Positions 10,362 through 13,105 of a stretch of DNA of 17,266 nucleotides are shown one piece after another; position 1 is the stretch's first letter, and each line of letters starts with the position of its first letter. The translations under genes were made by a program, and so were the position numbers. The notes beneath the pieces are model-generated. The model had not been told where the DNA came from. It did not search any database and saw only the letters and a list, made by a program, of their open reading frames with translations. The stretch lies in IMG/VR virus record IMGVR_UViG_3300020577_002861; one strand, given 5' to 3'. This DNA comes from a virus.

Positions 10362-10386
10362 AAAGGTTTTCTAATAAAGAACCTCC

Positions 10387-10416
10387 CACCTATGAAACAT
10401 TGACGGAACATAGGTG
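10387..10416 (-). promoter_or_regulatory. hairpin with an 8-bp perfect stem (CACCTATG / CATAGGTG, 14-nt loop) about 26 nt upstream of the small ORF, next to a GGAGG
   Basis: Read directly from the sequence. Confidence 0.35.
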
Positions 10417-10710
10417 AGAGAAGGCAAAGTCCTATAAGGCTCTAGCTTCTGCTGGTTCTGTGGAAATATTTTTAGTCAATGTTGTCATAAAAATAAGCTA
10501 CTCGCTTTTTAGAAAAAAGTCAAGAGGTTTTGTAAAAAGATCCTGGTGGACATTTTGGAGAGAGACCTCCCCTCCCCAGGGTATCACCAGATGCTATCAG
10601 GCGAGTTTAAAGTGCCCTAGAACGAACGAAAATATGGAAGTGGTACATTGTACCTAGGAATCGTTTTAGAGCATTTTAAAGTCCCTGGTATAGTTCCTTT
10701 GACATTGATT

Positions 10711-10736
10711 AAAAAGAGAGGTAAATGCCCTCTCTT
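10711..10736 (-). terminator. rho-independent terminator (minus strand only)
   Basis: Minus strand: stem AGAGAGG gcattta CCTCTCT followed by TTTTTAATC. On the plus strand no U-tract follows. Confidence 0.5.
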
Positions 10737-10940
10737 CGCAAATAGTTATTTGAGCCACTACGCACAAAAGTCTTTTGCGTTAATTCAGCTTACACTTAGG
10801 GGAAGAGTTTGGCAATAAAAAACTCCTATATTGTGTTTTCAGTTGAGTGTTTAGGTCATCTGTTCGTAAACAACATAGGAGCACACAAAATTATCAGACG
10901 CGGGTTAGTTTAAAAGCAGCCCCGCAGTATCGGTGTACTG
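10711..10940 (-). ncRNA. candidate non-coding transcript of about 225 nt, bracketed by a promoter-like element and a terminator
   Basis: It runs from the predicted start just downstream of TTGCCA-17-TATATT (10974..10946) to the terminator at 10736..10711. No ORF longer than 18 codons. A Bacteroidetes-type TAATTTTG box also occurs at 10893..10886. Confidence 0.25.
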
Positions 10941-10945
10941 CTTTT
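10912..10945. terminator. bidirectional hairpin terminator
   Basis: Stem AAAAGCAG / CTGCTTTT with an inner CCG/CGG stem. U-rich tracts follow on both strands (TTTTAATAT on plus, TTTTAAAC on minus). Confidence 0.5.
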
Positions 10946-10974
10946 AATATACACCCCAACAATAAAAATGGCAA
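10946..10974 (-). promoter_or_regulatory. sigma70-like promoter-like element TTGCCA-N17-TATATT (copy 1 of a duplicated element)
   Basis: -35 at 10974..10969, -10 at 10951..10946, spacer exactly 17 nt. It is embedded in the direct repeat GGGTGTATATTRAAAAG. Confidence 0.35.
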
Positions 10975-10998
10975 GTAGCTTTGAGGAGACTACCTGCC
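10961..10998 (-). terminator. rho-independent terminator, first after the holin gene
   Basis: Minus strand: stem GGCAGGTAG / CTACTTGCC with one mismatch and an 11-nt loop, followed by ATTTTTATT. It lies 38 nt downstream of the holin stop. Confidence 0.45.
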
Positions 10999-11020
10999 AT
11001 AATCTTATACCTTCTTTTTC

Positions 11021-11049
11021 AATATACACCCAGTTTTATTTTCCTGCAA
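11021..11049 (-). promoter_or_regulatory. sigma70-like promoter-like element TTGCAG-N17-TATATT (copy 2), overlapping the holin stop codon
   Basis: -35 at 11049..11044, -10 at 11026..11021, spacer exactly 17 nt. It shares GGGTGTATATT with copy 1. Confidence 0.3.
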
Positions 11050-11314
11050 TAGCCTTAGAAACCTCGGTATCTTTTAGAAGTGCTAGGTATACAACCTGAG
11101 AAGCGCCAAAGATTACGCTGAACCTAGCAAGTAAGTCTTGCCAGTCCATGATTGGTTTTGTACTTACTTCTGCAAACAGTGCTATAGCAAGGGCTAATCC
11201 ACCAGCTACAAGTCTTGTTGCTAATGCACCTTCTAGCTTTAAGAATCTCTTAGCGAGATCTACAATTAGAGGAAGCACTATTCCCGCTAACAATGTTACT
11301 GTGTTTACATCCAT
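11036..11314 (-). CDS. holin, about three TM helices
   Basis: 92 aa with hydrophobic segments VTLLAGIVLPLIVDL, LVAGGLALAIALFAEV and FSVIFGASQVVYLALL. It lies immediately downstream of the lysin. Confidence 0.55.
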   Translation of the reverse strand: MDVNTVTLLAGIVLPLIVDLAKRFLKLEGALATRLVAGGLALAIALFAEVSTKPIMDWQDLLARFSVIFGASQVVYLALLKDTEVSKAIAGK

Positions 11315-11345
11315 AAAAATAAAATAATAAATAAATTATCGAATC

Positions 11346-12320
11346 CTAATTTCTTTTAGAAGGAATCTTTGCAAGTAATTCCCTAAGCCATTTAACAAAT
11401 CTTGCAAGGATTGTAACAGTTGGATCAGGATTAACTCCGCCTCCTCCGCTTGCTTGGCAAGCTCTAAGTTCTTCTTGAAGTCGTTCATTGTTCTTGGTGA
11501 GAACTTCAATAGCACTCTCCTTTTTGCTAAGGTCTTCTTCCAAGTTCTCCTGAGTAGCTGCTGATGCAGCTTTGAAATCAGAAAAGTCAGCATCAAGTTT
11601 ATCTGCCCTAAGAAGTAAATCTTGCTTCTCTTGAGTGCATACTGCAAGCTTAGTATTTAGATCTGTTATAGACCCATTAAGGCTCGAAATTTGACCATCT
11701 TTTTCATTGAGTAGACCCTTAACCGTATTAAGTTCTGTTTGAAGTGCATTTATTTGTCTTCGTAATTCTTCGATCATTTTGTCTGCTGACTTAAAAAGTA
11801 ATTTTAATGCTATTGGATTTCCTTTAGGTATTCCAGTCCAACTAGAACTTTGATACCAACTCTGTAATCCATTCTCATTCTTAGAAACCCAAACCTCTCC
11901 TGTGTCTACAAATCTACCGCCATCACACAAAGCATTGTTTCCACCTCCATTTCTTAGCCATCTAACAATGCAAGTCCAGTGAAGATGAGGTTGTGCCGTT
12001 CCGTTACTATCTCCGCTCTTAGTTATGACCTGACCTTGTTTATAGAAAGCTCCCACTTTAGGTAAATTAGGTGTGTTTATGTGAACGAATTGGTGTTGGA
12101 AGTGAGCCTTATTACCATCTTCCATTTCGTAAACCTTGGGACAGTCTAGTATAAAACTATCCTTCCCATTGGTGCTTAGGATCGTTCCGTCATCAGGGGC
12201 TACAAATGGAAAGTAGACCATGCCCTGGTGTCCATAATCTGTACCCGCATGAGGTACCGTTCTGAAAGATTGGTAATCAGCAAAATTACTGGTTATATGG
12301 TGATCGGTGCACTTTATCAT
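11346..12320 (-). CDS. M23-family metallopeptidase lysin with a C-terminal coiled coil and a basic amphipathic tail
   Basis: 324 aa. HAGTDYG (HxxxD) and HLHW (HxH) are M23 zinc-ligand motifs. The C-terminal ~150 aa form a heptad-rich coiled coil ending in GGGGVNPDPTVTILARFVKWLRELLAKIPSKRN. Confidence 0.75.
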   Translation of the reverse strand: MIKCTDHHITSNFADYQSFRTVPHAGTDYGHQGMVYFPFVAPDDGTILSTNGKDSFILDCPKVYEMEDGNKAHFQHQFVHINTPNLPKVGAFYKQGQVITKSGDSNGTAQPHLHWTCIVRWLRNGGGNNALCDGGRFVDTGEVWVSKNENGLQSWYQSSSWTGIPKGNPIALKLLFKSADKMIEELRRQINALQTELNTVKGLLNEKDGQISSLNGSITDLNTKLAVCTQEKQDLLLRADKLDADFSDFKAASAATQENLEEDLSKKESAIEVLTKNNERLQEELRACQASGGGGVNPDPTVTILARFVKWLRELLAKIPSKRN

Positions 12321-12782
12321 TTATTCTATTATTCTAAAATATTCTGATCTCTGGATTTCTTTGACCTCTGTAAATGGGGAAACTTTAAAGTATAACTCTC
12401 TTACAATTCTTACCTTTTCTCCAACTGGGATCTCTTTAGGGATAGCTATCTCATTGGTAAAAGTGCTACACCCTGTGGCAAAGTTCGACTTTCTTTCTGG
12501 TAGCTCCCAGACAACGCCATCCTCAATCTTCGTTTCTATCCTAGCCTCTAACGGTAAAAACTTACAGTAATCTAAAATAAGATAAACAGTGCCACCCTTC
12601 TTAACCTCTTTGTTGTCGTTTAGAACGGCTATGACCTCGTTTTTAATATCAACTACATTAGGGGGAAAAATATATACGAACAAACAGTAGACTACGAAAA
12701 GCACCGTTATCCCAAAACTTATACCCACCATCCAATTATAAAGTGTTCTCATTTTAGATCTCTTTTTAATCTCAACTTTCAT
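12321..12782 (-). CDS. signal-anchored (N-terminal TM) protein in the lysis cassette, function unknown. Possibly a spanin-like or lysis accessory protein
   Basis: 153 aa with an N-terminal TM segment (WMVGISFGITVLFVVYCLFVYIF). It directly abuts the lysin start and overlaps the upstream gene by 4 nt. Confidence 0.5.
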   Translation of the reverse strand: MKVEIKKRSKMRTLYNWMVGISFGITVLFVVYCLFVYIFPPNVVDIKNEVIAVLNDNKEVKKGGTVYLILDYCKFLPLEARIETKIEDGVVWELPERKSNFATGCSTFTNEIAIPKEIPVGEKVRIVRELYFKVSPFTEVKEIQRSEYFRIIE

Positions 12783-13105
12783 TGACTTTTAATTACTAAA
12801 GCTAATATAGCACCAACAACTGCCGTTATCAATAACCCACCGACTATGTTAAAAATCCTCTGAAATGGTGCCAGTTCTCGCTGTAAGTTTTCTATTCCAT
12901 TTCTCAAATCTTTTTCTAATAATTGTGTCATTGTCCTTAGTCCTATCAATTCTCCTTTTAATCCCTCTACCTCTTTTTTAATGGCGACCAATTCAACATT
13001 AGTGGCGACTATTTGTAACTTAATGTCTGTTAATGTTTCTTTTAGCTTATCTACATCATTTTGTATTTCTACCATCTCTATATTATTCGTTGTTTTCTTG
13101 GTCAT
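12779..13105 (-). CDS. XhlA-like lysis-associated membrane protein (N-terminal coiled coil, C-terminal TM)
   Basis: 108 aa with a heptad-rich N-terminus and a C-terminal TM segment (IFNIVGGLLITAVVGAILALVI). The architecture and the position beside the holin and lysin match the XhlA family. Confidence 0.45.
   Translation of the reverse strand: MTKKTTNNIEMVEIQNDVDKLKETLTDIKLQIVATNVELVAIKKEVEGLKGELIGLRTMTQLLEKDLRNGIENLQRELAPFQRIFNIVGGLLITAVVGAILALVIKSQ

Follow-up and report, generated by a model that had tools for sequence, protein, structure and literature searches.

The stretch of viral DNA described here, IMG/VR record IMGVR_UViG_3300020577_002861, comprises 17,266 nucleotides and is referred to as a whole as the window. 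All genes of the window are carried on the minus strand. At positions 11036-13105, four tightly packed open reading frames (ORFs) form a predicted lysis region that includes the gene of a putative endolysin. A previous reading of this DNA, made from the sequence without database searches (the sequence-only reading), had described these ORFs as a four-gene lysis cassette, and we recovered all four exactly at the coordinates and in the order that it gave. It overlooked two features, namely that the C-terminal module of the lysin is common to M23 and Amidase_2 lysins, and that an additional ORF is embedded in the +1 frame of the lysin gene. The features of the region are listed below in the order of transcription; transmembrane is abbreviated TM.

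12779-13105, minus strand: protein of 108 residues, coiled coil in its N-terminal part and a single TM helix at the C-terminus (residues 82-108); predicted accessory membrane protein
12321-12782, minus strand: protein of 153 residues with an N-terminal anchor (TM 16-46) and a beta-rich C-terminal domain; near-orphan
11346-12320, minus strand: putative endolysin gene, 324 residues; M23 domain, coiled coil, Gly hinge and amphipathic tail
11796-12320, minus strand: M23 (lysostaphin-type) metallopeptidase domain of the lysin, residues 1-175, with H24xxxD28, H80 and H112xH114
11451-11792, minus strand: coiled-coil stalk of the lysin, residues 177-290; a single helix in the AlphaFold model, with heptads; common to Amidase_2 lysins
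11349-11450, minus strand: Gly-rich hinge (residues 291-299), C-terminal helix of cationic and amphipathic character (300-317), and a basic end; from hydrophobic moment and charge
11336-11593, minus strand: embedded +1-frame ORF, 85 residues, overlapping lysin codons 243-324; from stops, codon bias, selection and ATG
11036-11314, minus strand: protein of 92 residues, putative holin, with three hydrophobic segments (1-25, 29-50, 61-80) and a short charged C-terminus

The genes of the 108- and 153-residue proteins overlap by 4 nucleotides (ATGA), the latter abuts the lysin gene, and a gap of 31 nucleotides precedes the gene of the 92-residue protein. Membrane segments were called by a hydrophobicity scan.

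The lysin and its C-terminal module

The N-terminal domain of the lysin is, by its profile matches, a borderline and divergent member of the Peptidase M23 family. A precomputed Pfam annotation of the same protein includes PF01551, and the metallo-endopeptidase profile PHROG 7767 matched it at E=6e-6. A profile of five M23 homologues matched lysostaphin structures (E=6e-4), with H80 and H112-L-H114 aligned. The HxxxD and HxH motifs on which the M23 assignment of the sequence-only reading had been based proved to be invariant: H24, D28, H80, H112 and H114, which supply HxxxD, the catalytic His and HxH, are identical across the five homologues. The hydrophobicity scan found no hydrophobic segment in the lysin. 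A signal-anchor-release (SAR) endolysin was considered and rejected, as the protein has no TM or SAR domain and its N-terminus, MIKCTDHHITSNF, is polar. Other wall hydrolase families went undetected in the 30 neighbouring proteins of the window and its relatives. The gene also occupies the position of an endolysin gene, after the tail genes (the tail protein gene upstream of the lysis region matches phrog_372 at E=6e-37) and before a small multi-TM protein at the end of the late operon. The 324-residue protein is best described as a divergent lysostaphin-type M23 peptidase and putative endolysin with predicted catalytic activity.

Downstream of the catalytic domain, AlphaFold models one continuous helix from residue 177 to 290 at a predicted local distance difference test score (pLDDT) of about 90, then a hinge and a second helix at 300-317. 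The stalk is about 115 residues long, and its heptad register, with Leu or Ile at position a and Leu at position d, is unbroken over approximately 85 residues with one skip. In the window lysin, the tail helix has a hydrophobic moment of 0.61 and a net charge of +5; across homologues these values are 0.49-0.80 and +2 to +5, even where the sequence diverges. Heptads, the AlphaFold helix, and moment and charge thus agree with the long coiled coil, Gly hinge and basic amphipathic tail that had been read from the sequence. In the homologue P0006, the coiled coil ends in two TM helices where the others have the amphipathic helix, and this replacement points to membrane association as the conserved property of the C-terminus.

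Two cysteines of the stalk, Cys 227 and Cys 290 (about 11640-11642 and 11451-11453), stand at heptad position d and recur in most members of the family. After export, they could link the chains of a parallel dimer by disulfides. Their conservation could equally reflect the constraint of the overlapping frame instead.

Very few proteins share this architecture. A search of 5.8 billion proteins returned 12 clusters, all of them metagenomic: five full-length M23 proteins, six proteins with an Amidase_2 domain (PF01510), and P0006, which has an M23 domain and the TM end. The Amidase_2 members (P0007-P0012 and P0016) have the same coiled coil, hinge and tail, and are 40-84% identical to the window protein over the module. 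When 1.84 billion representatives were searched exhaustively with the module alone, P0016, a divergent Amidase_2 protein, and P0017, a divergent M23 protein, were added; the other matches were generic coiled-coil proteins. A profile search of the 5.8-billion set with the module alignment yielded one fragment only. In the two sets, about 15 clusters have this combination. The lysin had no match in 50,697 phage records, and nothing was found in the phage collection by a nucleotide search with the region or by protein searches with the lysin, the 108-residue and the 92-residue proteins. IMG/VR scans yielded a single related contig. Neither the coiled-coil module nor the Amidase_2 domain gave a hit in scans of 185,579 genomes; with no prophage relative to go by, these scans point to no host. 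Given the rarity of the module in these searches, the impression of an unusual combination in the sequence-only reading was correct. The C-terminal module behaves like an exchangeable domain, and stands where a wall-binding domain would otherwise be.

Some relatives carry an additional domain between the catalytic domain and the coiled coil. A middle domain of approximately 60 residues (MDTVVYGNETW...DYKNKTAEQ) is present in P0003, P0006, P0007, P0009-P0011 and P0016, and a strand-rich domain of approximately 85 residues in P0008 and P0012. Both are without a match in Pfam and may bind the wall.

An overlapping reading frame in the lysin gene

Stop codons, codon usage and start sites were compared in the 11 members of the family for which there is DNA. 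Towards the 3′ end of the lysin gene, the +1 frame is free of stops over 76-103 codons in 11 of 11 members, against 10-15 stops in the +2 frame of that stretch and 15-32 in the +1 frame elsewhere in the same gene. With the background rate of each gene taken on its own, such an absence of stops has a probability of 2e-4 to 1e-3 per gene. The lineages in which the frame is open have 20-45% identity in the region. As controls, the other 32 genes of the window were scanned, and their longest off-frame open run was 54 codons; 22 stops occur in the +1 frame of the gene of the 108-residue coiled-coil protein. A synonymous-codon shuffle of the whole gene gave p=0.001-0.035 per gene. Stops are absent from the +1 frame of the region because Leu, Ile and Val codons ending in TA or TG, which would create them, are avoided: this ending is found in 27% of the Leu, Ile and Val codons in the region and in 60% elsewhere (p=2e-11).

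Substitution patterns show signs of purifying selection acting on the +1 frame. Synonymous differences at identical residues are approximately halved in the region, where amino-acid identity is equal or lower; between the window and L001, they number 11 of 68 in the region and 62 of 158 elsewhere (p=6e-4). A first codon position of the lysin frame is at the same time a third position of the +1 frame; in the region, first positions are substituted as often as the third, or more often, whereas the rest of the gene has the usual third-position excess. For the window and L001, the substitutions at codon positions 1, 2 and 3 are 17, 15 and 12 in the region and 52, 40 and 95 in the rest. The +1-frame protein is conserved at least as well as the lysin frame, with identities of 0.78 versus 0.66 between the window and L001 and 0.90 versus 0.82 between the window and L010.

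The start of the embedded ORF is conserved as well. An ATG is present at the same alignment position in 9 of the 11 members. In L011, L006, L020 and L022, the open frame begins exactly at this ATG, directly after a stop, and in four members it is open for 21 codons further upstream. The sequence TTACTT(A/C)TTA or CTTATTA lies upstream of the embedded ATG, and resembles the TTATTA element found before ordinary genes. The predicted product starts at 11593 with the sequence MLTFLISKLHQQ... (N-terminus Met-Leu-Thr-Phe). It is a basic protein of 85 residues with an isoelectric point of about 10.8, has neither a TM segment nor a signal sequence, and matched no protein family. Standard gene calling missed the ORF in every one of these contigs. 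By these statistics, the lysin gene is dual-coding over its last 82 codons, and the +1 frame there would encode a conserved basic protein, as expected of an overprinted gene.

The embedded ORF is closely connected to the gene that follows. It ends in TAA, and the ATG of the 92-residue protein comes 7 codons later in the same frame; L013 is arranged in the same way. In L021, no stop separates the embedded ORF from the holin-like protein, and the two form one ORF of 177 residues. In L006, a phage that differs greatly and has another kind of small membrane protein, the embedded part and the membrane protein are likewise continuous in an ORF of 184 residues. The embedded and downstream ORFs are out of frame in L001, L005, L009 and L011. 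The occurrence of both fused and split forms among the lineages is an argument for a joint function of the basic protein and the small membrane protein. Since the basic protein forms the N-terminal part of the holin-like protein in two distant relatives, we propose that it may be a partner or regulator of the holin.

The 92-residue protein itself has the attributes of a small holin: three hydrophobic segments, a charged C-terminal sequence (KDTEVSKAIAGK) and a gene that adjoins the lysin gene. In L011, the protein of 97 residues encoded at this position shares 37% identity with it (E=8e-16), and in L013 the same type of small protein follows an Amidase_2 lysin.

Variable neighbours and genomic surroundings

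Genomic contexts were recovered for ten relatives. The gene orders are given below, with proteins named by their number of residues.

Window: 108 (coiled coil and TM), 153 (N-anchored), M23 lysin, 92
L011: 105 (three TM), 160 (N-anchored), M23 lysin, 97
L009, L013 and L014: 104 (three TM), 164 (N-anchored), Amidase_2 lysin, then the next gene
Next gene in these three: in L009, a protein in the 88-97 size range; in L013, a 97-residue relative of the 92-residue protein; L014 ends before it
L001, L005 and L010: two small soluble proteins, lysin, weakly hydrophobic protein of 88-97; L010 has an extra 106 before the last
L021: soluble proteins, lysin, holin-like protein
L006: 108 (N-terminal TM and coiled coil), lysin with TM end, 79 (two TM)

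Across relatives, the lysin and the small hydrophobic protein encoded downstream of it are the sole constant elements. In place of the two upstream genes, relatives have genes of unrelated membrane proteins or of small soluble ones. The four-gene cassette of the sequence-only reading is therefore real in the window and does not hold as a conserved unit, and we infer that the 108- and 153-residue proteins are variable, lineage-specific accessories and not core parts.

The three-TM proteins of 104-105 residues are encoded upstream of the lysin at 6549-6863 in L009, 7248-7565 in L011 and 1621-1935 in L013, and these phages may carry two holin-like genes. The extra protein of L010 (1794-2114), between the lysin and the holin-like gene, is Pro-rich with an internal repeat, occurs in that relative only and matched no family.

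The 108-residue protein had been called XhlA-like. Its architecture, a coiled coil with a C-terminal TM helix, fits this name, and homology does not: no XhlA profile (Pfam PF10779) was found at E<=0.1, so the likeness is architectural only. The protein matched no family, has no relative in the phage collection or IMG/VR, is absent from the cassettes of the relatives, and gave nothing against the coiled-coil profile of the lysin. It showed a weak similarity to residues 271-361 of P0006, which span the coiled coil and first TM helix (E=0.002 in a single comparison, 23% identity). This hints that P0006-type lysin ends and free coiled-coil/TM proteins are related, though the match may be compositional.

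The lack of an obvious family noted earlier for the 153-residue protein was borne out, as a single homologue (75% identity) was found in 5.8 billion proteins and it belongs to no family. A low-confidence AlphaFold model has a helix at 2-38 and strands after it. The suggestion that it is a spanin analogue had to be abandoned on topology and lipobox. An o-spanin was rejected, given that its sole Cys near the TM segment lies in VVYC, with Tyr at -1 and no lipobox. A unimolecular spanin of the T1 gp11 type was rejected as well, the protein having one N-terminal TM segment, no lipobox and no C-terminal TM segment. A two-component spanin was likewise rejected; the TM helix of the 108-residue protein is C-terminal, and the embedded protein has no signal sequence.

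N-anchored, strand-rich proteins of 160-164 residues precede the lysin in L009 (6823-7317), L011 (7522-8004) and L013 (1895-2389), where they are coupled to the lysin start in the same way as the 153-residue protein in the window. No sequence similarity was found between the 153-residue protein and those of L009 and L011, and at most they are functional analogues.

Downstream of the gene of the 92-residue protein lies a non-coding stretch of 674 nucleotides (10362-11035), which separates the lysis module from the early genes (DnaD-like loader, ERF and NinG). It has neither an Rfam nor a tRNA match; the Rfam search gave no family and the tRNA search no tRNA. Directly upstream of the first early gene is a 12-nucleotide inverted repeat, CTCCCACCTATG / CATAGGTGAGAG (10383-10420), which is kept in L001 together with a promoter-like TTGAC...TATGA stretch. 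The repeat may be a regulatory hairpin or operator. A scan for promoters and terminators gave results not above the expectation from shuffled sequence. In the early region, positions 1289-2095 encode a protein of 268 residues with two HNH_repeat (homing-endonuclease-associated) domains (E=3e-24).

Translation initiation in the window also appears to be unusual. Most of its 33 genes lack a Shine-Dalgarno sequence, and TTATTA begins at a constant spacing, about 16 nucleotides upstream of the ATG (for example before the starts at 544, 963, 2593, 4552, 5205, 5374, 5573, 8406, 10361 and 11314). On the coding strand, 14 of the 24 copies of TTATTA are within 40 nucleotides upstream of a start. The same pattern is found in L001, where a Shine-Dalgarno-like 4-mer precedes 2 of 29 genes. 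The near-absence of Shine-Dalgarno sequences is untypical of low-GC Gram-positives (Firmicutes), and TTATTA may serve as an uncommon signal for translation initiation and hint at the lineage of the host. The cyanobacterial HIP1 palindrome does not occur in the window. CCGG is absent, against 12.7 expected copies, ACGT and CGCG reach 0.38 and 0.36 of expectation, and several 6-nucleotide palindromes are missing. This depletion suggests the avoidance of restriction sites.

Proposed mechanism and comparison with known systems

From these observations we propose a tethered coiled-coil lysin with an overprinted basic partner of the holin and variable accessories, a reading that, taken whole, we regard as somewhat likelier to be right than wrong. 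The lysis module would close the late operon of a tailed phage. The coiled coil would oligomerise the lysin, probably as a parallel dimer, and the terminal helices would hold it on the cytoplasmic membrane where the holin lesions open; in P0006, the TM helices would anchor it. A lysin held at the site of the future lesions would be delivered locally, and the stalk could reach the wall. The 92-residue protein would act as the holin and open the membrane. The embedded basic protein would be a cytoplasmic partner or regulator of the holin, that is, an antiholin-like N-terminal extension made as a separate polypeptide.

Several observations weigh against this proposal. The Pfam model PF01551 matched the lysin at E=8.6e-6 and 26.3 bits, under its gathering cut-off of 28.7, and AlphaFold gave residues 1-180 a pLDDT below 50 and did not model the M23 domain; this low confidence is attributed to the shallow alignment. 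Membrane binding by the tail is argued from its amphipathicity and a single TM-bearing relative. The 92-residue protein and its counterparts belong to no known holin family in Pfam, PHROGs, NCBIfam or the phage collection. The counterpart in L001 has no segment above the TM threshold, and the three-TM proteins upstream of the lysin in L009, L011 and L013, which have a charged tail, resemble a classical holin more closely. That the embedded ORF is translated is deduced from statistics on the DNA. A conservative codon shuffle within the region gave P values of 0.0004-0.26, significant for some members only, and L009 and L013 have a TTG one codon upstream instead of the conserved ATG. Finally, the clues to the host are contradictory, and the type of envelope depends on the host.

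The last point leads to an alternative that we consider unlikely, in which the host is diderm, the cationic tail disrupts the outer membrane after cleavage of the wall, the stalk reaches across, and the 108- and 153-residue proteins are spanin-like helpers. The scarcity of Shine-Dalgarno sequences and the TTATTA element, untypical of Firmicutes as they are, would fit such a host, as would the early proteins ERF and DnaD-like, which are closest to proteins of Gram-negative (enterobacterial, Vibrio) phages. However, the Amidase_2 domains of the family match only Gram-positive phage endolysins in the phage collection, and the tail protein matches mostly Bacillus and Streptomyces phages. Outer-membrane-active C-terminal amphipathic helices have been documented for endolysins (PMC11929351), but the two TM helices of P0006 suit anchoring better than an attack on the outer membrane, and neither upstream protein has the topology or lipobox of a spanin; both are also absent from most relatives. 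A different function of the lysin, as a virion-associated tail enzyme used at infection with the coiled coil as a fibre-like oligomerisation stalk, is improbable in our view. The lysin gene does come directly after the tail protein genes, and M23 domains with coiled coils are generally known to be common in tail-associated lysins and tape-measure proteins; the matches of the lysin to tape-measure profiles, in the coiled coil only, are weak and add little. Against this function, a small hydrophobic protein is always next, at the end of the operon, the catalytic domain is exchanged for an endolysin-type Amidase_2 domain, and no second lysin is present among the 30 neighbouring proteins. An amphipathic or TM C-terminus is not a feature of tail fibres either, and the 3′ end of the gene is shared with the embedded gene, which two relatives have fused to the holin-like protein.

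Two further alternatives concern the +1 frame. A programmed frameshift could lead into it and produce a lysin isoform with an alternative basic C-terminus, which would be joined to the holin-like membrane domain in L021 and L006; such a membrane-anchored isoform would parallel P0006, and both the conservation of the open frame and its extension by 21 codons upstream of the ATG in four members are compatible with it. Yet the frame opens at the ATG right after a stop in L011, L006, L020 and L022, and the TTACTT(A/C)TTA-like element before this ATG resembles the motif of ordinary genes, which makes a frameshift, to our mind, slightly more improbable still than a virion enzyme. We give least credence, by a hair, to an untranslated +1 frame that is a by-product of nucleotide constraint, such as RNA structure or a recombination linker for module exchange. 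The exchange of the module, a recombination unit, from one lysin type to another could lower divergence, and the +1 product matches no protein family. Nucleotide constraint of this kind, however, leaves unexplained why stop-forming codons are avoided for one frame alone (0 stops versus 10-15), why the ATG is conserved, why the frame persists in lineages at 20-40% identity (L006, L011, L020, L021 and L022), and why it is fused in frame to the downstream gene in some relatives.

A bolder extension of the tethered-lysin reading is offered tentatively, and we would sooner expect it to fail than to hold. The overprinted protein might represent an unrecognised class of lysis regulator, a detachable N-terminal domain of the holin that serves as antiholin or timer, and stalk and tail might be an alternative to a wall-binding domain that parks the lysin by the holin. 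Lysin, regulator and holin would then make up a compact unit that swaps catalytic domains, in an uncultured host lineage with few Shine-Dalgarno sequences.

As modular enzymes, endolysins are of interest for applications. If one portable module takes over from the wall-binding domain on two catalytic types, it would amount to a new strategy of targeting and would give the engineering of lysins a new building block. The fused and split states across relatives provide a natural experiment on the evolution of a holin timing domain.

Among known enzymes, lysostaphin, zoocin A and LytM are like the window lysin in HxxxD, the catalytic His and HxH, and cutting of cross-links may be expected by analogy. 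In contrast to these lysostaphin-type enzymes, the window domain is very divergent, and the protein has a coiled coil and amphipathic tail instead of an SH3b or other wall-binding domain. Long coiled coils are also found in the wall hydrolases and activators EnvC, PcsB, CwlO and RipC, which are under the control of the membrane complex FtsEX and in which a hydrolase or LytM/M23 domain is carried on a long coiled coil that connects it to a membrane component. Their coiled coil, however, is N-terminal, and they are secreted by a signal peptide and encoded by the host; no homology to them was detected. The 108-residue protein is like XhlA of the Bacillus subtilis prophage PBSX in its coiled coil, C-terminal TM helix and location in the lysis region, but differs in that it has no profile match and its gene is not conserved among relatives.

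Embedded lysis genes are few. In phage lambda, the o-spanin gene Rz1 lies in the +1 frame of the i-spanin gene Rz, and the two products act in one pathway. The present gene is similarly a +1-frame gene overprinted on a coiled-coil-coding stretch of a lysis gene, and such stretches may be low-constraint substrates for overprinting, as with Rz/Rz1. Unlike Rz1, its product has no lipoprotein signal, the gene that contains it is a lysin gene, and the cassette has no spanin features. A case from 1999 (J Bacteriol 181:4452, cited in PMC6023083) is hol187, reportedly a lysis gene encoded out of frame inside the endolysin gene ply187. Here, the embedded product is basic and without a TM segment, lies in the 3′ coiled-coil part, extends as far as the holin-like gene, and is fused to it in two relatives; the overlapping gene would thus add a third case to Rz1 in Rz and hol187 in ply187. 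Lambda also produces two forms of its holin: the longer, S107, has an additional positive charge at its cytoplasmic N-terminus and is the antiholin, and the shorter, S105, is made from an internal ATG. The ORFs of 177 residues in L021 and 184 residues in L006 would give a comparable arrangement. The extension would differ from that of lambda in its length, about 85-105 residues against 2, in its overlap with the lysin gene and, in the window, in being a separate ORF ended by a stop codon; its regulatory role is suggested by this analogy.

A short basic amphipathic helix at the extreme C-terminus is known from many Gram-negative phage endolysins (PMC11929351, PMC10053066). That helix is attached to a globular domain, whereas the helix of the window lysin is carried on a 115-residue coiled coil via a Gly hinge and is replaced by TM helices in one relative. 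The M23 family, C-terminal amphipathic helices on endolysins and out-of-frame genes within lysis genes are thus already known. What is new is the combination of a long stalk, hinge and membrane helix as an exchangeable module of two lysin classes, and the predicted gene overprinted on the stalk, whose product would be not a TM holin but a basic domain that is alternately fused to and split from a holin-like protein.

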